DNA from: Synchiropus picturatus | Lineage: Eukaryota | NCBI GenBank assembly: GCA_044231675.1 | Contig: CM094669.1 | Coordinates: 2,993,643-3,057,642 of the forward strand | Length of the DNA stretch: 64,000 bases | Reading direction: 5' to 3' | Shown: piece after piece, positions 28,089-52,732 of the stretch | Position numbering within the stretch: the first letter of the stretch is position 1 | How the letters are laid out: each line of letters begins with the position of its first letter | Notes under the pieces: generated by a model | Databases searched by the model: none | What the model saw: only the letters and a program-made list of their open reading frames with translations | What the model was told of the DNA's origin: nothing | Made by a program: the position numbers and the translations under genes

Positions 28089-29177
28089 ACATCGCTCGGT
28101 CATCACTTCCTGTCACCTGACCATCACCAAGCTACACCACCGACATCCTGCTGCTCTCGCACCCTGTTGCTGAACTCTGACCTCTGTCATGTGACTGAAC
28201 ATCTGGATGGTACTTGCTGTGTTTCTGCTGTTGAACCAGAAGCATGCAGCTCAGCACCGCCCTCTGGAGGTCGCCACCTTAACACCCTCGCCAAACTGTA
28301 TAGTTTGGCTTGTGCTATTTAGCAACCATTAGCATGCTAAATGCTACACACCAGTGCCACAAAAGTACTCTTCTTAAAAGTTTACAAATAGCTAGCATGA
28401 CTAAAACGCTGCTGCAGCAACCCTCACGTTCACTCGATCACTTAAATCTAGCTCGAATGTGTCGTCACATTTTCATGAAAATGGTTCGTGGTGCTCGGTC
28501 TGGATGTTGCTGCCAACAAGTATTTACAGGAAACTAAACCTCCTGCATGTTTACATCATTTATATCATGTAGCTTTTTTGACAGCGATGCTAACATTTGT
28601 AAAAAAAAAAAATACAGTCTAAAGAAGGAAAATCCTCCATCTTTGTTTACCAGTCTCAGGCGTGGAACCTGACTGCGCCCCCTGCAGGCTGTACGTAGCA
28701 TGTTTACTAATTCATTATGCAAATGACAGAGCAAGCCTTGACCCCAGCTCTTAAGACTGCTGCACCTGCTTGAACGCTCTTCCTGCCCACGGTTGCCTGC
28801 TGCCTTTTTGTTAGTATCCTTCTCTTAAGCACTTTTTTCCTTTGCTCAAAATCCAGTTTTTTATATGAGAAAACTTTGTACTTTTACAATCTCTTCCTCT
28901 TGTATGCACAACGCTCGCTGTCAGCTGCTTCCTGTGACTCGGGCGGGTTGTTGCATGTAACATTTATCCACAAAGACTTGATGAAATAAACGTTATCTGC
29001 AAAACCCTCAATGTTTTTGTTCCAACAGACTTGGAAGCCGATATTTGCATGAAGCTCTACATATGCTTTTATTTCAGCTGGACAGGCACAGGTGAGAAAC
29101 AGGTGACAACACCTGCTGACACCACAGCAGTGACCAGTTAGCAGATGCGGTTTCGCATTTAACTTCAAGACTTCACT

Positions 29178-35780: not shown

Positions 35781-38700
35781 TCACTCCAACATGGCGTCCA
35801 GCTGGTCAGCGAGGTCGTCAAACATGTTCCCGATGTCGTCCAGGATGTTTCCCGCCGACTTGACCACGTTGGCCCTGCAGGTGACAACAAATGTTAGAGC
35901 TGCACTCGAAGGTGGTGAGGTTGGTGCTCACCCTCCCGAGTCGTCCAGGGTCCTCTCCACCGCCTTCAAGGCCTCGGCCAGCGAACTACTGGTTTGCTCC
36001 AGTCGCTGCTGCACCACTGTGTCCCCTGGATCCAGCTGAGGAAGAGGGGATGGGCTGGGAGACGGGGGGGCGGGAGAGGCAGGTCCGCGGCAGGGAGACG
36101 GTGGAGAACTGAAGGCCAGACTCTGCACCAGACTGACTGTCACTGGCGGGGCAGTGATGCCTCCTGCAGGGCAGAAGTTCAGGTTCAACAAACAGATGTC
36201 GCTGCTGTGGCTCAGGTCAAAGATCATCTCAGAATAACCTGAGTCAACAACCAGGTGGTTACCTTGAGCTGCCAGCAGACTGTGTCTCGCTGGTTTGGGA
36301 GCGACGACAGGAGGTTTCGGGGACAGCGGAGGTCTGACGCTGGACTCTGTTGCGGCACTGTTGGGACCCTCACCAGGTCTTGGGCTGACCCTGTCCTGAG
36401 ACTCTTCCCCTTCCCAGCAGGGTGAGCCGTCCTTGTCTTTGGTTCGGTGACGCCGCTTCACCGTGTCCGACTCCGTCAGATTAAACTCTGGGTTCCGGGT
36501 GGCGAGCTTCTCCAGTGGCTCAAGCACGTCCTCTGCCCGCGGTGGCGCCGGTGCTTTGGGCCGCTGCTTGATGGTCAGGTTCCCCTCCTCAGCGAAGGGA
36601 ATGCACTCGCTGGAGCTATGCTGTGGCGAAGAGGATCCTTCGATGCGGACTTGCTTGGGTTCCTCCTCCTCAGAGTCAGACTTGACCCCGCGGTCCAAGC
36701 GGGAGGCGTCGGTCTGGACACAATCGCTGTTGATCCGCCTCCTGGGCCCGCCCACCTCGGACAAGGACGGTTCCTGCTGCTGAGGGTCCGTTTTTTCCTC
36801 TTCGTCGAAGCTGCTCTCCAGAGACGCTGCACTGTTCTGGCCACTTCCTGGGCCGTCCGTCACAACACCCCCGGGGGAGGCGGAGCTGCTGTCACTCAGG
36901 TCGACGCTTGCGCCGCTACTCACGGAGCTCAGCCTCTTGGGTGGAGGCGGAGGAGGGCCTTTCTTGCGAGCGCGCACGGCGAAGGACTGGCTCCGACCCA
37001 CCCCGCCACCGGACTTCTCCGGACTGGACTGTAACCGAGCACCGTGACTCCGGTTGGGCCTCCGAGTCAGCGTGGCATAGGACGGCAGGTTGGCTGGAGG
37101 AAGGGCCTGCTCTTCGTCATCGTCGTCTGGCTCTCCGTCCGACAGAGCGTAGCGGCTCGCGCTCTGACTGCGCTTCTTGGGCGGTGCAAGCGCGCCGGCG
37201 TGGTGAGACTGCAGGTAGTTAAAACCCTTCGGTGCTGGAGATGCGAGGGGGGAGGAGCCACAGGAGCCGGCGAGTCTGGGTTTGGCGGGCAAGGCCGGGT
37301 ACTTGAAGACCGTTGCTGTCCCCAGAGGAACCTGCTTGGCCCTCTGGTCCCAGCCCTCAGGGAGGCTCCGCTCCTTGGCAGGACTTGAGTCCAGACTCTC
37401 CTGGGACCAGCTGTGGGGGCTGACAGAGGCAGTGGGAGGGTCCTGGGAGCGGCCAGATCCTCTGGAGCGGGAGTCAATGCTGTCCTGGCTCTGAGAGAGC
37501 CCTACCGCCTTCTTCATGTCTTCGCAGCCGGCGTAGCGGCTGCACATGGCGGCCTGCAGCTCAGAGCTCAGCTCACTGTCCTGGAAGGTCAGCATCTGCG
37601 GGGTGCGAGGGGACGGCGCATCAGCGCCCCCTTCTGAAGACTCAATGGCCACCAGGTGAAGCGAGCCAGGGCCTTTGCGCCGCAGAGTGCCGTGACCCGA
37701 CTCCGCCTGCCCAGCTGCCCGATGGATGTCGCAGAGCTTCTTCACTGCCAGCATCATCTTCTTCTGGTGACCTGCAGGGGGCAGACTTTCACTACATGGC
37801 GACCGGTCGAAAATTCAATCTCAGGCAACCGATCCTGACCCAGTTTGGTGACTCCGATCTCCTGCAGGTCCTCCCAAGTCAGGTCCTTGACTATACCAAT
37901 GGTGTCATAGCCATTCTCCGCCAGATGCTGCTGGTACTGCGGCAGCCCAATAGAGCAGAGCCACTCGCCCAGGTCTGACTGCGGAGGAAGCAGAACCTGG
38001 TCAGGTGCGACGTCGGCGCTTCAGGCCGAGTGGGTCTCACCGGGATGAAGTCCGGCAACCACTCTGGAATGTTCAGGTTGTTGATCTCGATGGAAATCTT
38101 CTTGCGGTGACCCGGTTTGGTGACACCAATGGCGGTCAGGTCCTGAAGCACAGCGAGACAAGGTCACACAGGGCTGTGAGGACACGTGTGTGTGTGTGTG
38201 TCAGGTGGGAGATCACCTCAGGCGTCATGCGACTGATGGTTGGGACGTCGTATCCAGCATTCAGGAAGTTCCTCGTGTATTGATCCAGTTGGAAGTCGCT
38301 CAGCCACTGATAGATGGCCTCGGCATCCTGCCACACACACACTATTAGACGCAGTCCTGGCAGGGTGCCGCATCTCCTACCTTGCCCTCCAGCAGATCCC
38401 CGGGTCGCACACTCTGCTGACAGAAACTAGGATCCGCTGCTCGCTGCACCGTCACCGTGGACCTGCGGGCAGCACCACCTGCAGGGCAGGAGGAGGGTCA
38501 GCTGCTGGAGCCCAGAGTTCTGGGTCCAAAAACCTTACATACCAGTGGGAGGGTCCTTGTCTTCAGGGCCCAGAAGCGGGGACGCCGACTGCAATCGAGA
38601 CCGAAGGAGTAGTTTGTGTTGGACAAGCCTGAGTCCAGGGTTCTTACCTTGCTGATGTGACCCGGGGTGTGCGGGAGTCCGTTGGTGGGGTTGTTGCTCT

Positions 38701-41700
38701 CGCTGCTCTGTCCACTGCCGGCGCTGCGAGTGCTGCCCACACTGCCGGTGCTAGCCACACTGCTCCGGTCACCTGCTGACCCACACAAGGGTGAGGCAAG
38801 ATCCAGAGGGAGGGGGGAGGCCTCTAGGTGGCAGCAGACCAGGAGGGAGCAGGGGGGTTAGTTGCTGCGCTAGCAAAGATGCGGTCCTGGCGTCAGCAGA
38901 ACCACAAACGTCTGAGGAGAGGTGCCACGTCTACGTGTCTGGTGAAGCAGGAGCGACGCGCTTCGAGCAAGCTTGTCAGCGCCATCTAGAGGTAAAGCCG
39001 CTCTGTTGTGCCACCTGTTGATGTCGGTCAACAAGCAACTGTGATGTCATGTCTCGCCATTCGCTAAAGCACCACTGCCGGAAACGCTTTTGTTCTGACC
39101 CATTATACTGTCGGACCTTTAAACAGTAAGATATTTCTTGAGAAACTTCTGCTTCTTTCAATGAGGCCCCCTGGTGGCAGAAGCCAGTATCTCGGGTGCA
39201 GGTTCAGCCCGAAGCGGTGGGATCTCACGCAGTTCTGACCCGACTCATCGAGACGACTCAAAGCCACCAAGCCCACAAAGCCAATCAGACGGGTCTTCAG
39301 TGGTGATGCACAGAGGGTCCGGTTGAGTCAGGTCGAGATTTGCAGGGAGTTGAGCTTCAGCCCAGCGGGTGGAGGGGCGTCGGGTCTTACCCTGACACGA
39401 GTCCCTGAGCACCCAGATGTCCTGGTACAGACACCTGGACTGGGACATGCGGCTCCACGTCGGACCTGACGGACCTGACGAACACACAAACATGAGTTCT
39501 GGCTGCAGGTCCAGAGGCCGGACTCCCGTGGCTGAGGGCTTAGGGACCACTGGGCCCAAGAGGAGGTCTGACCTCTCACTCACACACGTGCTCACTAAGA
39601 GTGTGTGTTAGTCATCAGAGTGTGTGTGTGTGTGTGTGTGTGTTAAAAGCCTGTGTGAGAGAATGTCGGTGGGTACCTGCGTTAGTGGCGAGGCCGTTGG
39701 GGAGGGGCACAACCACGTTGGTGGGGGGGACATGGAGGGAGTGGTCAGTGAGGGGGGCGGAGCTCAGGCTGGCAGTCAGGGGGGATCTGGTCAGCTGACG
39801 CTGGGGGGGCAGAGAGGCGTGCCGTGATAAAGTCCCGCCCCCTACAGGGTGAAGGGGGGGATGGTTAATGGACTGATTAGGAATGAGGTCAAAGGTTAAG
39901 TTCTGATGAGGTGGTGCATGGCAGGGCTTCGTGCATGAGGACATGGCGCACCCCGGTGAGACTGACCGTTACGCCTGCTGATGACCTCCACGATGGACGG
40001 CGGGAAGAAGCCCACCCTGTCAGTTCCTCGCTGGTCGTGGATGTGGCCCTTCCAGCGTCCATCCGCGTGCTGCTCCAGCACCTGGGGAGTCAGGAGAATG
40101 GAGCCTGGGGTCTTCCATGTCGCAGAGCCAGGGCAGAGGTCAGAGGTCAGCGGTCTCACCGTGATGACATCACCGGCACGGACGTTCAGCGCCGTCGGAT
40201 CGTGAAGGTTCCAGAAGTCCTTGAGCGCGCGGACCTGCAGCACTCCGGTTGCTTCTGCACCACATACACAGAGGGAGGGGTCATGAGCGGCAGGGTCACG
40301 TCAGGGATCAGGACGGTGCCGTCGCCACCTCGCAGCAGCTGCTTGATGTCCCTGCTGGCGTGTGAGGTGGTGAACTGGTTGACGATGTCCAACGCCGTCT
40401 GGTTGTAGGTGTTCCTGATGTTGACGTCCACGCCGGCCTCGAGGAGAAGTCGCACCACCTCCGTCTTGCCGTACAGCGCCGCCTCGTGCAGAGCGGTGCC
40501 GGACTTGGTGGTGGAGTTGATATCGATCCCAGCCTTCAGCAGCAGCCTGCACACACAGGCAGGTCAGCGTGGAGGGGGACGACCAAACACGTCAGCCGGA
40601 CAGTTCTCACAGGATGACGTCTTTGTGGCCGTTGCGAGCGGCGAGGTGAAGCGGCGTGGTGAAGGCCGAGTCGGTGGGCTCCTTCCTCTCGCCCTCCAGC
40701 AGCGCCACCACCATGTTGCTGCTGAGCAACAGCTGCGCCACCTTCAGCCTTCCGAACTCGCACGCCAGGTCCAGCGGCGTCTTCTTGGACTTGTTCACTA
40801 GGCAGGGGTTGGACTGGTGCTGTAGCAGCATCTCCGACTGTCTCAAACACACACGCACACTGTTCTGAACCCCGGAGTGCATGGATGTGACTTTGCCGGG
40901 TCAAGGTTGAGGACTTACCACCTCATAGTGACCGTACTGCGCGGCGAGGTGCAGCGGGATGTGGCCATCCAGGGAGACCGCGTTGACCGCCGCACCTGAA
41001 CGCAGCAGCATCAGCACCGACTCGGCCTTGCCCTGCCAGGCAGCGTAGTGCAGCGGACGCATGCCTGCACACACACACACAGGTGACGGTGAGAGAGTCA
41101 TGCTCACTTGTGGAGACTCCGCCCACTTACCATTACTGTCCCTCACGTCCACCGACGCCTGGGCGTCCAGCAGCGCCGCCAGCAGCTCCGACGTCCCGGT
41201 GAGAGCGGCGTGATGTAGAACAGAGAACCTGGCGGCAGGAATCAAAGGTCACGTGACCAATCGAGAGAAGAAAAGGCGCAGTTCTCACGTGACCCAGCAG
41301 GGGAACCGTTGTGCGACTGCGGTCATGGCAACCGACGCCGCAGCTATTCCATCGCTGGAGTTGTGTTTGTGTGTCCATAAGTTCTTGCCTGTGTGTGAAT
41401 GCTAGCACCGCTTTGTGTATGTGTGTTTAAGAAAGCTGTGTGTGCTCTCCAGCTCTGAGTGTGTGTGTTTAGTCAAGAGACACCAAGTTACACAATGGCC
41501 CGCAGAGAAACTGGGACTGACAAGGCAGCACACACCACACACAAAGCCCCAGATCCACGCAGACCCAGCGACACTCACCCGTCTGAGTCCTGGTAGTTAA
41601 TGTTGAGCCTCTTGCTGGAGCCGAGCAGCTCTGGAAGAGAAGCAGGTCACATTGTGAAGCAGAGGAACCGGCTGAACCATCACTGGAGTCCATCTATAAT

Positions 41701-43229
41701 AATAATAATAATCTATCTCATAATATAATCTAATCTGAGGACCCCCCAGCTAGCAGCTACAGGTCAGGATGCTGGAGCTTATGTTGCATAGGTGCTATTA
41801 AGGAAGTTATTCCGGAGCTGACATTGTGAGCGGCGACCTGTGCCGGCTGTTACCAGCCAGTGTTGACATTCTGAGGTCAAAGGTCAGAGAGCTGTTTGCT
41901 GGGGAGACTGAACAGGAAGTGTGTTCTGGTTCATGATGGAGAGTCGCTGGACATGAATGTGATGCCATCGTCCTGATGGCTGAACTCCGTGTGAGTATAT
42001 GTGCGGGTCTTTAATGCTTTTCTCTCTCTCTCCTTGTGCTCAGGGCAAGCAAGCCGTAGAACTCTGCATTCCATTCTTCTGACATCATCACCCCCGCCCC
42101 CTTCCTTCCTCCCCCGGCTTCCTTCACAGACGGCTGGGAATCGAACTAGAGAGTCAGAGGAGGACGAGTCGTTCTGCTGATCCACTGTATTGTGTGGGCA
42201 AAGCAGCAGCAGGGGATTGTGGGTATTGAGTCTGGCCTCCTTGAAGTTTATTGCATACCGACTCATGTAAACACAAACATTTCTGCACACACACTTGTGC
42301 ACTGAGACACATACACTTGTTGACTCACACAACTCGCATTCACACACTGACCCCAGTCTCGCACATAGACACACATGTATCTCTATCCTTGTGGGGACCT
42401 CTCATTGCCATAACATTTTCCCAGCCTCTCACCCTAAACCTAACCATCCAAAACACATGACTAACCTAAACCAAGACTCGGAACTAAAGTGGAATGCAGT
42501 TAAAATCACACAGTTGCTATGAAGTCTTCCTCCTCAAATTGAGGCTTAACCTGATAGAGTCCAGCCAAATGTCCCCACAAAGTCATACGGTCCTCACAAG
42601 GACAGTGTTAATCTGTTGTCAAGGATTGAAGTAGGATAAACAAGCCCCCACACACAGAGATATAGAGTGAAAGCAAAGTGAAAGTGGAGTCATCCCTCAG
42701 TCACATGACCTGAGGTCACGTCACGTGACTTCATATTTGTAAAGAAAAGTGACAAAAGAGAAAAGATGGAACATCGTTACGTAAGGAGGCACCGGGGGGC
42801 AGGCGGGGGGAGTGGGGAGGGGGAGGAGAGTGGATGAAAGTGGAGGAAGAGTAGAAAGAGGACAAGGAAAAAGTAGCATGGAGGAATAGGAGGAGGAGGA
42901 AGGGGAAGAGGTGGAGGAGGAAGAGCAGAGTGAGGAGGAAGGAGACATGGAAACTGGCCTTCCTACTTTCACAATCATATTTCACAGCCCAGTTCAAACA
43001 CTTGACCTCTGACCCCAGATCCGTACAAGATCCCATGCACAGACATCAGAATCTGGACCATCATCTGAGTCGTCTCCAGTGAGCCATCACTGGCAGGTGA
43101 GCCATTTGAGATGAGTCACCCGCCGAGTCACTTACTGGTTCTGCCGGACTTGAGTTTGGTCAGAAGCCTCTGGGCGGTCGGCAGGTCTCCGTTCTTCACT
43201 GCCTGCAGTAGCTCTTGCTCCTTCCCCAT
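35781..43229 (-). CDS. caskin2: CASK-interacting protein 2 (CASKIN2): ankyrin repeats, SH3, two SAM domains, a long Pro/Ser-rich exon and a conserved C-terminal domain. Resolved exons: exon 1 43136-43229; large exon 35932-37772; last exon 35781-35874. Other exons lie about 38000-41650.
   Basis: Exon 1 reads [31 protein letters not shown]|gtaagt. ANK exons (40186-41245, 41590-41640) read [78 protein letters not shown]; [38 protein letters not shown]...[16 protein letters not shown]; [72 protein letters not shown]. These match human CASKIN2 better than CASKIN1. SH3 (39896-40243): [43 protein letters not shown]...[18 protein letters not shown]1 and SAM2 (37796-38342): [50 protein letters not shown]...; ..[16 protein letters not shown]|[19 protein letters not shown]-terminal exon: ..DSGG|[30 protein letters not shown]. 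Confidence 0.9.
39621..39644. repeat. (TG)n microsatellite in a CASKIN2 intron
   Basis: tgtgtgtgtgtgtgtgtgtgtgtg. Confidence 0.95.
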
Positions 43230-44893
43230 GACTCCTGCCGCTCACAGACGCTCCTCACGATAACATGCCGGTGGGCAGGACAGCGCCGCCTGCTGGTGAG
43301 GCCCGGAAACCAGAGAAAGGTGAGTGGACGGGGGGAGCAGGTGGGAGTCAATCATGTGACTATAAATGTCAGTTTCATCATCTGTCCAATCAAATACTGT
43401 ATGGCGGCTGCAGAACCTTCACTCCAGATAAGTTGTGTCCATTTTATAACCTCTATAGGTGAAGACAACGCCCCCCTCTTCACTCAGTACACTTATCAAA
43501 CTCTTCCGGGCCGCTGCTCTTCAGAACCTTTCTGCTTGACAGAACTTTGTTGCTCCACAAACACCGCGTCCCGGTCCGATCCACGGTGCCCTGGTTACTG
43601 GAGAGGCGCGGAGCTGTCAGCACCAGTTACTCCATCACGTCTCCTCGGGCCATTTTCACTCTCAGCGTGGACCGGACCAGGCTCAACTCTGGATGTTGAC
43701 AGCCAGGCGAGCAGCTGAATCCTTGTTATCCGGAACCAGCGAAGACCTTGCAAGAGAGGTTTGACGTGGACTGGCCACCGGTCCGTAAAGGTCTCGTTTT
43801 AACGTGCACAACCCGAATGATTGCGGTCAAAGACACAGTTCGGAGTAGTTTCTGTTTTGTCCCCAAATCAAAGTTCGGCTCAGATTATACAATATCGAAG
43901 AACCAACTCCACATTCTCGCTGAAAAGTCACACGCCGATGTTTGAGACGACCTCACCTCACGTCACGTCCTCAACTTTACAGAGCTCACATTGGACCCGA
44001 GTCCAGCGGCGCGAGCTCGGAGATCCGCGGGGGGAACCGACAGCCTTGGTCCGGAATCTGGTGCGACAACGGTGGCCAGAGCTTCACCCTTCACCCGCCG
44101 CCTTTTGCGAACCAGAACCGGACACTTTCCCCGCGTCTTCAACTCAACCAAACAAACACTGGATTTACCTTTAACTGCGGAAACTGGACTGTTTCCCAAC
44201 TCGCAGTTATGGAGTCTCCAGGAAACTATTCCCGATCTTGTGATTCCGACCAGAACTTTCCTTTTCCCACCGCGCTCCCGTCCACAGGCGTCGCCCCGCC
44301 ACCGTGTCCAGCGCCGCTGTCGTTCGGAGTCCACATCAAACACTCTGATGCGGGATTTTGGGGAACTTTTCCTCTCGTTCGGACGTCCCTTGCGCCACTT
44401 TTCCCTCCGCCGTCCCGAGCCCTCAAGGTGTCAAGTTACACGTGACACTAACAGTACATCCGCAAGGCGCTTTCAGAATAATAGCCAACTACCGGACGTT
44501 CCTAATCACAGTGAGAACCTGGTCCCTGTTGAAAGGGTTCAACTAGTGGCAGGTAAAACCGAAGCTATCACTCATAAAATAAACCCAACGTTGACCGGAG
44601 ATCTAGAAAAAAAAAAAAAAAGAAGATCATTAAGGGCGAGTGAAATACTGTCACCTGCTGAGGAAGACCGGGAACTGCAGTTCACATGTCGCTATAAATA
44701 ATAAACAACACGTGGAAGCTCTACATCTATATTTATTTTCAGTACAAACCAGCCACTCATGAGTACAGACTACATTAGTTAACACACGCCAAACGACAGT
44801 TAAACTACCAAGTTCTAAGTTTGAATGAAAACGCTAGTTTTTTCTCATATCAATAGCCAACAACATTGTGATCAATCAGTCCGGGGAAGCTGC

Positions 44894-46956
44894 TCAGAGG
44901 GAGTAGAGCTTGAGCTGCTCCTCCACCTCCCCCTCCGTCACGCCCCCCAGCGCCTCCTGGTTCTCCCGCAGCAGCAGAAAGATGGCGGCCAGCTGCTCCT
45001 GCTGGACCCTGAGGACCACAACATTTAAGTTAGTTCGACCTGAGAAGCTCCCACTCCATGTTCTCCTCAGGAAATCCACCGGTCAGGTGGCGTGGTTCTG
45101 TCAGCTCGGTCGACCCAGGACTGGACCAGCTAGCGTCCGAGGACGGACCTCGGATGAGGATCCGCACCTCTGAATGAAGCACCTACGAGTGAAGCGGCTG
45201 CGGTGCTTCAGTCAGCCGTAGGAGGGCGCCGTGAACAAGGCGTGAATGTGACCAGCAGGTGTCGCTGTCCGGCGGACGTGAACACACGAGACAAATCACT
45301 TCAACTGTTTATTGGCTGAGATTGAACCACAAATAAACACCTTCATTCATCCTCCCTTTTGTGGTTATTTTCCCTCGAATTTCTTCCTTCACAAATTCAT
45401 CATTTACATTTTAAGATAAATTTCATTGACTGAAATGAATGGCATCTCCTTTACTTCATAACCTAAAGACAAAATGCTCTATTGATACTGAATATTTTGA
45501 ATGAAAATGACTCAACACAACTTATTTTTTCTTCTTGTTTTCAGATAATGAAATAAAACCTGTAAATACATTTGTGTGTCTTCATAACGCTTCAAGCATC
45601 ATCAGATCTGAAAGAGAAAAAAAAACATAAATATTTGTTATTCACCAAACATCAAACAAAACCATGTATAAAACATGACCCAGCAGTAAAAACTCACCAG
45701 GAGGAGGCTGTTAGCAGGCAGCATGCTTGTCATCATTAGTTAGCATGTTAGCAGCAATACGTCCTTCCTTGTGCGACAGGAACCGTCGGTGAGTCTCGCG
45801 GCGATCGAGATGGATGCTAACGTTAGCGGCGACTAGCACCAGGCCGAGTGTAAAACCACCAACTCAGCAGTGAGCGTGAAAATATTCACCGAACGAAACA
45901 GCATAAAAGTAATCCTGATTCATCATCAGCACCGGAGGAAATGCTGAGTCATAGGAAGTTATTTTCCCCCAAATCCAAATGTGAACTCGCTGACTAATCA
46001 CTTACTTTTTAAGATATGAAAACCATAAATAATAAAGTAGCTAAAACTGCTGACGGATGAAAAAGAACTGCAAAGTCATTGTTCACTTTAAAAATATATA
46101 TATATATAAAGCGCTGACTCATCGTTCACATTGAATCAGGTGGACAGCGTCACGGGACATCAAAGGAGTCGTCTGATGTTTGACCTGATGAGCTGCGGCC
46201 AGATTGACAGGAGAATTAGGAGATTAATCAGGATTAAGCAGCTGCCAGTGGAACAGCTGGCCGTCATGTCAGTGGCCAACCTGAGCAGCAGGTAAGGGAT
46301 GACTCGGGTCAGTGGGTGAGGATGACTCACTGGAGACTACACACTGAACAGGGGTCAGGGGTCACAGACGACACTGGGCACCTTACCAGCGCAGTGTCGC
46401 GCTCGGACGATGAGGCGGTTACAGAGACGTAAGGTCGGAGGTGAACTCGACCCTGCAGAGATAAAGCTTCATGTGGAGCACTGCGACTGTGAGGCGTGAC
46501 AGCCAGGCAAGAACTCGGGGTGTCACACAGGAAGTTAAGTCAGTCGGGTCACACCAGGTCATGAGGTTCAGGCTGACCACAACATTCTTGTTAGCACCAG
46601 CAGGAGGAGCAGAACCCATTCAAGCACTGTGTGTGTGTGTGTCTGTGTGTGTGTGTGTGTGTGTGTGTACCTCTGTTCCTCCATCATCTCCTCCTTCGTC
46701 ATCATCGTCTGCAGTTTATTCTGCTTCTTCCCTGGAGTGAACATCACTTTGTCTTCAGCCTCACCTGCCAAAGACACAACATCTCGTCTGAGACACACTT
46801 TATTGGGACTCTATTGAGTGCAGCGTTTCTCTGCTGGTAGTTACTGAACAGAGCAGTGTGTTGGTGTTTGTGTCTCTCGTGTGTGATGTCATCGGGTGAA
46901 TCGAGTTGATCAAATGGACACCAGCTGAAGACCAGATTAAGGGTCCGACAGATGGC

Positions 46957-47005
<49 letters not shown>

Positions 47006-49415
47006 TTGAATTCATCTGTTTCTGGTCCCGGTGGGGTGGCAGGAACTTCTTCTGCTGTAGAAGACACGCTTGGTTCCGGTACTGGGTCTGATCCTAACTG
47101 GATCTTTGGTTCAGATTCTGGGAGGGTAATGGGTGCTGCTTCTGGTTCCGGAGCATGAATAGCTTCTGTATCCGGGCCTTGTTCCGGCATTGTTAGTGGC
47201 GCAGACATAGGTCCAGATTCCAGTTCTGATGACTGCTCAACAGACATGGGCTCTGCTAAAGAGGTGGATTCTGGTACTGGGACAGATTCTGTCACTGGAT
47301 CTGATGCTGTGAAAGACGCTGGTTCTGGTGCTGGGACAGGTTCTGGTTCCGGTTCTGAAATGGGGACCAATCCGGTCAGTGGTTCTGAAACAAGGACCGG
47401 TTCAGTCACTGGTTCTATTGCTGGAAATGGTTCTGGCACTGGGACAGATCCTGGTTCTGGTGCAGGTACTGTTTTCAGTACTGGTTCTGATGCTGGTTCT
47501 GGAACAAGGATCGATTCAGCCTCTGGCCCAGGTGATGGGACAGAAAATGTTTCTGGGAGAGATGTTAGTCCTGGCACAGGGACAGACACTGGTTCCAGTA
47601 ATGCCTCTGAAACTGGGGCTGATTCAGTCACTGGTTCTGGTGCTGGCACAGACACTGGTTCCGGTATTGGGACAGATGCTAGTTCCGCTGCTCGTACAAC
47701 TATTGGTTCCGGTACTGGAACAGATTCTGGTACAGATGCCTGGACAGATAATAGTTCTGGTTCTGGAGCAGATGCAGGTTCCAGTGCTGGGGCAGGAACT
47801 GATTCCCGTGCTGGGACAACTATTGGTTCTAGTACTGGAACAGATTCTGGTTCTGGTACTGGGACAAAAGCTGGTTCTGGTTCTGGAGCAAATGCTGGTT
47901 CTGGTGCTGGGACAACTATCGGTTCTGGCACTGGAACAGATGATGATTCTGGTTCTGGAGCATATGCTGGTTCCGATGCCAGGACAACTATCGGTTCTGG
48001 TACTGGAACAGATTCTGGTTCTGGTACAGATGATGGTTTCGGTGCTCGGACAGGTGCTGGTTCTGGTGCTGGGGCAGAAACGGTTTCCGGTGGTGGGAAA
48101 GATATAGGTTCTGGAGCAGATGCTGGTTCTGGAGCAGATGCTGGTTCTGGCACTGGGATAGATTGTGTCTCACATACTGGCTCTGGTGCTACAGCAGAAA
48201 CAGGTTCAGGTGCTGGGACAGATAGAGGTTCTGGTTCTGGAGCAGATGCTGGTTCTGGCTCTGGGATAGATTGTGGCTCACATACTGGCTCTGGTGCTAC
48301 AGCAGAAACAGGTCCAGGTGCTGATGCTGCGGCCGGTTCTACTGTGGGTTTTGGCTCCTGCCGAAAGACAGAATAATTTCTCGTCACAACTAAAGACCAT
48401 GAGGAAAACAAACCACAAATGCTGTTTGGTTCTGGTCCAAATTTAGAGCTTCAGCTGACTCGCCTGTCGCGGTCGACCTATGACCTGAACTGTCACCCAC
48501 AGACCTCGTTAAAGCAGCCGGTGCTGACAGAAATATTCTGGTCCACTTGACAGTCTGGTCAAGTGTTCCTGTTGGTCTGTTTTCATGGGACCTCATATGG
48601 ACCTGTTTGGTCCTGGTGCTTCAGTGACCACTGTAATGGATCTCTGGACACCAGATGTCACTGAGACCTGCTTCCCTTATGTTGGTCATGTGACAGTGGT
48701 GCGTAAATATAGGAAGCATGTTGGGCCCAATATAGACGCTTGTAACCCGGGGGGCGGGGTTAGTGATCGCCACGCCCACCTTCTACTAAACCTAGCTGAT
48801 CATTACTCAGCAGATTTACAGCTAATTAGCATTTTAGCTTCATTTCTAATCGCAGTTGAACAGCAACGTCATGGGGAGATTTCACCAAAGTGCAGTTGGA
48901 GAATTCCTGGGCCGCTAACGTCCACATTTCCATGATGCAATTGGAAAGGAGTTTTTTTGTTTTGTTTATATTTTGCGAAGAACAGACCAAACTTTCCATA
49001 TTAATAATAGCAGAACTAATAAACGTGTCCACAGCGTTCATCACATGACTCGCAATGCTTCATTCAGAATGAAATAAGCGCGTTAATTCAGTTTAAATAA
49101 CATCGAGTTCTGGGTTTGTTAAGCCCGTCTAAGCTTTAAGCGCACAAAAAAATAAATACATTAAAAGTTACTTTCTATAAAGACTTTTAAAGTATTTTTT
49201 AAATACTTCACAAGTCTCATAGACCAGTACTTAAAATGTGTCGGGTGTCTGACCTGGACCGGAGGCGCTCGGGTCTCCACAGGTGGTCTGCTGTCACTAG
49301 TGCGTCCGCTTTTGGGTTTGTCATCGGTACCGGTTCTTCTGCCGAACCAGGACGAAGCCACCACGACTGCAACAACGGTGAAGAGGAGCGCGGGAAGCAG
49401 CAGTTCAAGCTCCAT
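44894..49415 (-). CDS. mxra7: Matrix-remodelling-associated protein 7 (MXRA7-like), a single-pass membrane protein. Exons: 49254-49415 (signal-anchor/TM), 47004-48357 (very large Pro/Glu-rich tandem-repeat exon), 46671-46764, 44894-45008.
   Basis: Exon 1 reads MELELLLPALLFTVVAVVVASSWFGRRTGTDDKPKSGRTSDSRPPVETRAPPVQ|gtcaga (human MXRA7: MEAPAELLAALPALATALALLLAWLLVRRGAAASPEPARAPPEP..). Exon 2 follows acceptor tctttcggcag|GAGCC and is 1354 nt of (PEP/PAP/VPV)n repeats, ending ...EEVPATPPGPETDEFK|G gtgtgt. Exon 3 reads ..EAEDKVMFTPGKKQNKLQTMMTKEEMMEEQ|R. Exon 4 reads VQQEQLAAIFLLLRENQEALGGVTEGEVEEQLKLYSL*. The last two exons align to the human MXRA7 C-terminus, ..YSPGKLRGNQYKKMMTKEELEEEQRTQKEQLAAIFKLMKDNKETFGEMSDGDVQEQLRLYDM. 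Junction phases are consistent (0/1/2). The gene is adjacent to JMJD6 as in human 17q25.1. Confidence 0.8.
46629..46668. repeat. (GT)n microsatellite at the 5' end of the MXRA7 intron 3 (exon 3 donor is gtacacacac... on the minus strand)
   Basis: gtgtgtgtgtgtctgtgtgtgtgtgtgtgtgtgtgtgt. Confidence 0.95.
46958..47003. repeat. (CA)n microsatellite immediately 3' of MXRA7 exon 2 (the intron starts gtgtgt... on the minus strand)
   Basis: cacacacacacacacacacacacacacacacacacacacacacacc. Confidence 0.95.
47030..48350. repeat. About 1.3 kb tandem repeat (18/36-bp periodicity; units like GGTTCTGGTGCTGGGACA) forming MXRA7 exon 2
   Basis: Plus-strand text repeats ...ggttctggtgctgggacaactatcggttctggcactggaacagat.... 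All three plus-strand frames are open over hundreds of codons (ORFs 47246-48376 and 47328-48107), in addition to the minus-strand coding frame. That pattern is the signature of a stop-free tandem repeat. Confidence 0.85.

Positions 49416-50117: not shown

Positions 50118-52732
<2,615 letters not shown>

Follow-up and report, generated by a model that had tools for sequence, protein, structure and literature searches.

How does a gene of the MXRA7 family come to carry a 451-codon, Pro/Glu-rich exon between its membrane anchor and its conserved C-terminal domain, and what would such an exon contribute to the protein? The question is raised by a stretch of 64,000 nucleotides (nt) of the Synchiropus picturatus genome (assembly GCA_044231675.1, contig CM094669.1, positions 2,993,643 to 3,057,642 of the forward strand), hereafter the window, in which all coordinates below are numbered unless another locus is named. 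MXRA7 has been described as poorly understood, without a defined structure or topology (PMC12092922). A preliminary description of the window had drawn attention to a long repetitive exon of this gene. We find that this exon (48357-47004, minus strand) is a 24-nt minisatellite, now decayed, in which higher-order blocks and one young duplication can be recognized, and that it probably is a translated, disordered, acidic Pro-rich spacer that joins the anchor to a C-terminal two-helix domain and has grown by in-frame duplication.

The repeat is the second coding exon of an MXRA7-family gene

Four exons on the minus strand, with canonical AG/GT sites, join in frame to give a coding sequence of 1725 nt, or 574 residues. 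The coding part of exon 1 (49415-49254) has 54 codons; it starts MELELLLPALLFTVVAVVVASSWFGRR with an ATG at 49415, ends in phase 0 at the donor GTCCAG/gtcaga, and encodes the N-terminal membrane anchor (predicted helix at residues 3-27) followed by a basic juxtamembrane stretch. Exon 2 (48357-47004) is 1354 nt long, or 451 codons plus 1 nt, and encodes a linker rich in Pro, Glu, Val, Ala and Ser that is predicted to be disordered. It is entered in phase 0 at the acceptor tttcggcag/GAGCCA and left in phase 1 at the donor TCAAAG/gtgtgt. Exon 3 (46764-46671; 94 nt, phase 1 to 2, acceptor tttggcag, donor ACAGAG/gtacacac) supplies the remainder of the split codon of exon 2 and encodes EAEDKVMFTPGKKQNKLQTMMTKEEMMEEQ(R), where the conserved MXRA7 region begins, and the coding part of exon 4 (45008-44894, acceptor tcctcag) encodes (R)VQQEQLAAIFLLLRENQEALGGVTEGEVEEQLKLYSL, the core of the MXRA7 helical domain, followed by TGA. 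This model, built from sequence, agrees with the preliminary description on several points: an exon of 1354 nt and about 450 codons at 47004-48357, its position between an anchor exon and the conserved C-terminal exons, and an exon 1-2-3-4 structure. The exon lies on the minus strand, has 451 open codons and good splice sites, and fits its neighbors as the second coding exon with matching phases.

The spliced protein matches the Pfam family PF25473 (MXRA7_helical) at 66.6 bits (E 1.9e-18, residues 518-573 aligned to profile positions 8-63 of 64), where the curated cut-off is 22 bits. A profile of the domain found 419 homologues among 1.84 billion representative proteins, the named ones being matrix-remodeling-associated protein 7 of fishes, amphibians, reptiles and mammals. 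Gene order gives the same answer. JMJD6-like exons (50529-52231, minus strand; JmjC exon at 51035-51352, E 2.9e-21) lie directly upstream of MXRA7, and METTL23-like exons (53408-54253, plus strand; Methyltransf_16 at 53587-53877) stand head-to-head with them. In Dissostichus, Hoplias and Dunckerocampus, too, a JMJD6-like gene lies ahead of the one with the MXRA7 domain, and Dunckerocampus has a METTL23-like neighbor as well. JMJD6, METTL23 and MXRA7 form a conserved vertebrate gene block. The domain match, the synteny and the exon phases thus uphold the earlier assignment to MXRA7. Teleosts hold at least two further MXRA7-type sequence classes (PLRYMPGMLR... and KYIPGKSQSHH...), and we therefore call the gene an MXRA7-family member in the ancestral neighborhood, short of a strict one-to-one human orthologue. 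An Esox protein of another MXRA7 type carries the name "serine and arginine rich splicing factor 2a isoform X1" (srsf2a), a label that suggests duplicated blocks.

Exon 2 is a decayed 24-nt minisatellite with blocks of different ages

To dissect the repeat, we ran Tandem Repeats Finder (TRF) on the interval and compared self-match at each lag with codon-shuffled controls. Over the whole of exon 2, self-match peaks at 0.535 at a lag of 24 nt, whereas the controls average 0.397 and never exceed 0.434; in the central 400 nt it reaches 0.66-0.70 at lags of 24, 48, 72, 96 and 120 nt. The dominant unit is 24 nt, or 8 residues, of the form (V/A)PxPEPxx. The periods reported by TRF (18, 24, 30, 48, 60, 72, 108 and 120 nt) are all multiples of 6 nt, and exon 2 repeats in tandem and in frame more than chance allows, its unit being, as in a coding minisatellite, a multiple of 3 nt. 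Most TRF rows match at 63-85%, with near-perfect copies limited to two patches. The tandem array first reported here is therefore real, but the near-perfect 18/36-nt unit attributed to it is not the dominant pattern.

The exon divides into zones that differ in self-similarity. The youngest duplication (48123-48323, minus strand, as are all the zones) is a 108-nt, 36-residue unit present 1.9 times at 96% (TRF score 381), which reads SAVAPEPVCE(P/T)QSIP(E/V)PEPASAPEP... in 36-residue rows. The sole perfect patch (48107-48150) is an 18-nt unit present 2.4 times at 100% (TRF). The core array (47578-48009, exon residues 117-260) comprises about 18 units of 24 nt in a single (V/A)PxPEPxx register, arranged in 72- and 120-nt higher-order units of 80-85% identity. 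Next comes a decayed zone (47308-47577), with self-match of about 54-59% at lags of 30 and 114 nt and one TRF row of 30 nt present 2.2 times at 77%. The 3' part of the exon (47004-47307) is non-repetitive: its self-match is at the level of the shuffles, and it partly aligns with pipefish orthologues (alignment A3). Repeats had been said to make up almost the entire exon, a claim that the last ~300 nt (47307-47004) contradict.

The product is as rich in PEP motifs as had been claimed, with 31 PEP triplets and 26.8% Pro, 16.0% Glu, 13.1% Val, 11.8% Ala and 11.5% Ser. Its net charge is -68, and Ser and Thr together account for 15.5%. On the plus strand the array appears as GGTTCTGG-type words, whose reverse complement CCAGAACC encodes Pro-Glu-Pro; exon 2 accounts for 22 of the 25 such words in the entire 64-kb window.

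These patterns suggest how the exon may have arisen. Successive tandem duplications, all in frame, of the 24-nt unit and of 72-, 108- and 120-nt blocks would have lengthened exon 2 in this lineage, through unequal exchange or replication slippage, with most copies diverging afterwards. Blocks at 65%, 80-85% and 96% identity may record successive rounds of duplication. Residues at the x positions would be free to change, with the frame and the Pro/Glu pattern persisting. Slippage or unequal exchange that keeps the reading frame had been proposed before, and periods that are all 6-nt multiples, together with nested higher-order units of differing age, lend that proposal support.

The reading frame and the case for translation

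In the exon 2 interval the MXRA7 frame contains no stop codon, and the other five frames contain 19, 9, 9, 25 and 1. The earlier statement that the unit is stop-free in any frame is thus incorrect. All 2000 mononucleotide shuffles of the exon contained stops, 17 on average. Over the last 101 codons, which form the non-repetitive tail, the sense frame alone is open, and the antisense frames over the non-repetitive part carry 7, 1 and 5 stops. Base composition is strongly codon-periodic, with 54% C at position 2 and 57% A at position 3.

Several observations weigh against translation or limit the case for it. Differences among repeat copies show no third-position excess, so the codon-position test cannot serve as evidence of coding; copies in the core array differ most at codon position 2 (0.40-0.44, versus 0.21-0.33), so that signs of purifying selection are confined to frame and composition and do not extend to single residues. 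An annotation of Dissostichus mawsoni (P0002) leaves out the orthologous exon, and the RefSeq models of the other orthologues are themselves predictions. Translation in this species is argued from the open frame, the phases and the orthologues, and the length of the array is that of the assembly.

Orthologous exons differ in length and in repeat unit

We next compared the exon with its counterparts in other species. The Hoplias malabaricus protein (XP_066497625.1, 485 aa) has it as a single exon of about 315 codons (locus L003, 19690-20652), with junction phases 0, 1 and 2 as in the window. It too holds a 24-nt (8-residue) in-frame array, present 14.1 times at 96% with the unit EPTPGPVS. In Dunckerocampus dactyliophorus (XP_054614677-9, 362-399 aa) a single exon of 270 codons (locus L004, 7367-8176) has almost no repeat, and in D. 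mawsoni (locus L001, JAAKFY010000014.1, 28653-29122) about 135 codons are built of 18/36-nt units. The Paramormyrops kingsleyae proteins (XP_023692734-7, 402-444 aa) carry a 14-residue unit, seen at the protein level with the exon unmapped, and the Nerophis ophidion gene model (XP_061740421/2, 388-407 aa) includes the long-linker exon. The expansions are independent, their units differing between species, and the same exon would have expanded separately, with different units, in other fish lineages. The D. mawsoni model that omits the PEP-rich exon (F7725_002943) reaches its frame solely by starting in the middle of exon 3 (KTMMTKEE). That exon shows an apparent one-base frame break near 28976-29021, either an assembly indel or a real lesion.

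The long-linker proteins of Hoplias, Paramormyrops, Nerophis and Dunckerocampus share with the window gene an N-terminal anchor, a large exon 2 rich in Pro, Glu, Val and Ser, and a C-terminal helical domain; a JMJD6 neighbor and the exon phases are also common to both. They differ in the length of exon 2 (270-315 codons, versus 451 here) and in the unit, (V/A)PxPEPxx here as against EPTPGPVS in Hoplias and 14 residues in Paramormyrops. At 65%, against 96% in Hoplias, the array in the window is also the older and more decayed of the two. The MXRA7 domain starts at about residue 506 in the window, and at 425, 371, 323 and 314 in the longest among the 150 best representatives. The linker is thus the longest among those compared, at about 1.4 times the exon of Hoplias, 3 times that of Dissostichus and 8 times the platypus exons at this position. 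It is not unique in kind, since RefSeq teleost MXRA7 proteins already include versions of 270-315 codons.

In the platypus (XP_028912680.1, 210 aa), two small exons of 33 and 22 codons, about 55 in all, stand at the position of fish exon 2. Like the window protein, the platypus protein has an anchor that is acidic on its N-terminal side and basic on its C-terminal side, a Pro-rich and then acidic linker, the FxxxPGK...MTKEELEEEQR motif and a helical C-terminus, and its FSFKYSPGK exon is entered in phase 1, as in fish. Unlike the window protein, it has a linker of about 115 residues overall, exon 1 holds the anchor and most of the Pro-rich sequence, and there is no 8-residue array. Human MXRA7 has 4 exons and encodes a protein of 22 kDa (PMC12092922). 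The exon had been described as several-fold larger than the human segment; this is true relative to the ~55 codons of platypus, the sole mammal mapped.

Broader searches added little. A search of a 5.8-billion-protein set with the exon 2 peptide returned, among the matches listed, only a compositional match, a metagenome protein with a cornifin-type Pfam label, and was uninformative. A profile of the C-terminal domain run against the same set gave mostly short fragments, with none closer than Lates (85%) and no longer orthologue. Searching the literature for MXRA7 together with teleosts or tandem repeats turned up nothing on exon 2. A variable number tandem repeat (VNTR) in a 5' untranslated region exon of human MXRA7 is among the strongest VNTR expression quantitative trait loci (bioRxiv 10.1101/2020.11.03.367367) and is unrelated to the coding array. 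Orthologues with the MXRA7 domain bear RefSeq names such as "TsetseEP-like", "pinin-like" and "FILIA-N KH-like domain-containing", misleading names that seem to be driven by low-complexity matches or by a neighboring gene.

Predicted structure and topology of the protein

AlphaFold2 (AF2), run with the small alignment A3, predicts helices at residues 3-27, 529-557 and 562-573, and no secondary structure across residues 28-528, where the block-averaged predicted local distance difference test (pLDDT) score is about 35-55 and mostly near 40. A Pfam search with the repeat peptide on both strands, including the plus-strand open reading frame (ORF), matched no family. The length variation of the linker among species, taken with this absence of predicted structure, fits a disordered polyanionic spacer. 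If exon 2 acts as a spacer, it would need only an open frame and a Pro/Glu-rich character, and so would be free to change in length.

The anchor itself (residues 3-21) has a mean Kyte-Doolittle value of 2.39, comparable to those of 12 other family members. In these 13 proteins an N-flank of 2-15 residues precedes the anchor, with no Lys or Arg in 12 of the 13, and the C-flank carries 2-5 Lys or Arg residues in 11 of the 13. By the positive-inside rule, the basic flank of a membrane anchor faces the cytosol. An acidic N-flank and a basic C-flank would therefore place the N-terminus outward, and the flank charges suggest that both the linker and the helical domain are cytosolic. This orientation fits the vimentin binding and cytosolic staining reported for mouse MXRA7, in a paper that also claims secretion (PMC9841631).

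Two known systems resemble the linker in composition. The PEVK region of titin is a Pro/Glu-rich entropic spacer in which P, E, V and K make up about 70% or more of residues, in 26-28-residue PPAK or poly-E units. The window linker is likewise Pro/Glu-rich, repetitive, without predicted structure and variable in length, as PEVK is between species or isoforms. The likeness is a functional analogy: there is no sequence relation, Lys accounts for 5 of 451 residues (1.1%), P, E, V and K sum to 57%, and the unit is 8 residues with no PPAK units. An elastic role such as that of PEVK would be, for this linker, an analogy too. The EP-repeat proteins, such as the tsetse EP protein and the trypanosome EP procyclin, are Glu-Pro-rich and are the source of the name "TsetseEP-like". 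They have Glu-Pro-rich low-complexity sequence in common with the linker, and the name reflects composition; the window protein differs in lacking long (EP)n runs, with EPEPEP as its longest, and in its conserved MXRA7_helical domain. We rejected homology to PEVK and homology to EP procyclin.

Alternative explanations for the repeat exon

Could the repeat be an intronic or untranslated minisatellite that is open by chance in one frame, with transcripts joining exon 1 to exon 3? A stop-free unit keeps a repeat open by construction, the P0002 model skips the orthologous exon, and the lack of a third-position excess between copies points the same way. The last 101 codons, which are not repetitive, are nevertheless open solely in the sense frame, and the exon forms part of the gene models of Hoplias, Dunckerocampus, Nerophis and Paramormyrops, its phases being conserved in the two that were mapped (Hoplias and Dunckerocampus). 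A direct splice from the phase-0 end of exon 1 to the phase-1 start of exon 3 would break the frame of the conserved domain, and the Dissostichus model obtains its frame only from a start within exon 3. We consider an intronic repeat very improbable and rejected it. Coding on the opposite strand is more improbable still, to the point that we give it almost no credence and rejected it as well. An ATG-started plus-strand ORF (47246-48376) would encode a 376-residue protein rich in Gly, Ser, Thr and Asp, with a single stop in that frame across the interval. Its paucity of stops follows from its being the antisense of CCN-GAR-CCN codons; it has no Pfam match, no flanking exons and no gene context on that strand, the non-repetitive part is interrupted by the antisense stops given above, and the minus-strand reading is phase-linked to conserved exons.

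That the 451 codons are not the true length, copies having been collapsed or falsely duplicated in assembly, strikes us as improbable. A 201-nt block that is 96% self-identical at a 108-nt period, together with the perfect 18-nt patch, could be mis-assembled from short reads. Most units, however, are just 63-85% alike, a divergence that sets them apart sufficiently for assembly; over 1354 nt the frame is unbroken and both splice phases are preserved, and an error would alter at most the copy number of the youngest block (36 codons). A further alternative accepts translation and places the linker outside the cell, as a mucin-like, O-glycosylated stalk that keeps the C-terminal domain off the cell surface; the preliminary description had envisaged an extracellular stalk, possibly O-glycosylated. 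The segment is indeed Pro-rich, with some Ser and Thr and no predicted structure, and mouse MXRA7 has been reported as secreted or acting outside cells, but the same paper reports the vimentin binding and cytosolic staining noted above (PMC9841631). The composition argues against a stalk, with Glu dominant at 16% and a net charge of -68, and the anchor flanks of the 13 family members, by the positive-inside rule, put the bulk of the protein in the cytosol. Mucin-like stalks typically have Ser and Thr at a quarter or more of residues, plus Pro, and the 15.5% of exon 2 falls below this. We regard such a stalk as unlikely. The translated, disordered spacer, probably cytosolic, remains our preferred reading of exon 2.

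A stronger version of this reading would hold that exon 2 is a recurrent hotspot in which linker length is selected and does not just drift, setting the reach of the C-terminal hairpin, for instance to vimentin or other cytoskeletal partners, with length polymorphism within populations and an effect on phenotype. Independent in-frame arrays in four lineages (characiform, mormyrid, notothenioid and that of the window) are those named for it, and we hold it to be a doubtful extension.

Splice-site microsatellites, isoforms and neighboring sequence

Two microsatellites found by TRF stand in splice-site context. A (GT)23 tract in transcript sense, (AC)23 on the plus strand (46958-47003, minus strand, 100%), begins exactly at the exon 2 donor, its first GT being the donor GT, and a (CA)20 tract in transcript sense, (TG)20.5 on the plus strand (46628-46668, minus strand), begins 3 nt into intron 3, past exon 3. 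Microsatellites had been described on both flanks of the repeat exon; both tracts exist, but in transcript sense both are downstream of exon 2, whose 5' flank is ordinary sequence. The (GT)23 tract forms a ladder of possible alternative GT donors, one per 2 nt. CA repeats in introns are known hnRNP L-dependent splicing elements, and the lengths of (GT)23 and (CA)20 could influence splicing. At the Hoplias locus (L003, 19652-19695), a (TC)22 tract forms the polypyrimidine tract just 5' of the exon 2 acceptor, again a microsatellite as splice context.

The pipefish isoforms (locus L004, 6001-6174) differ by 18 residues, VGYTDDVSPSKLCATEPQ, that are contiguous within exon 1 of X1, which points to a putative upstream alternative donor after ...TPK. 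The corresponding exon in the window (49254-49415) has no GT after ...KPK, which seems to leave the long form of exon 1 as the sole option in this gene.

Downstream of MXRA7, a neighbor at about 38000-43241 (minus strand) combines ankyrin repeats, SH3 and SAM in a CASKIN-like architecture; in Dissostichus, Hoplias and Dunckerocampus its place is taken by other genes, which encode a sialyltransferase, a PDZ/EBP50 protein and a TPR protein. Elsewhere in the window, 55659-56114 is a triplet-repeat, low-complexity stretch that is open in several frames, reading as poly-Glu/Gln on the plus strand and poly-Ser/Leu/Pro on the minus strand. It is preceded by a plus-strand ORF starting MADRRRRRRRASQDSEDDD at about 54660, and the stretch may be an acidic exon of some gene.

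What the locus says about the MXRA7 family

Exon 2 is a low-complexity linker exon that has undergone lineage-specific, in-frame expansion, extreme in length, otherwise ordinary and unsurprising to a specialist; with versions of 270-315 codons already in RefSeq, the window version is a new and extreme case. Such an exon is easily missed or misnamed in annotation, as the model skipping it in Dissostichus and the names "TsetseEP-like", "pinin-like" and "FILIA-N KH-like" illustrate. In the locus and its relatives, constraint falls on the anchor and its asymmetric flanking charges and on the two-helix domain at the C-terminus, whereas the Pro/Glu linker is free to vary, about 3-fold among the mapped fishes and about 8-fold relative to platypus. 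This freedom of the linker, set against the constraint on the anchor and the helical domain, argues that the linker serves as a spacer. The charges around the anchor predict that the bulk of the protein is cytosolic, a prediction relevant to the claim, as yet unsettled, that MXRA7 is secreted as a matrix protein.

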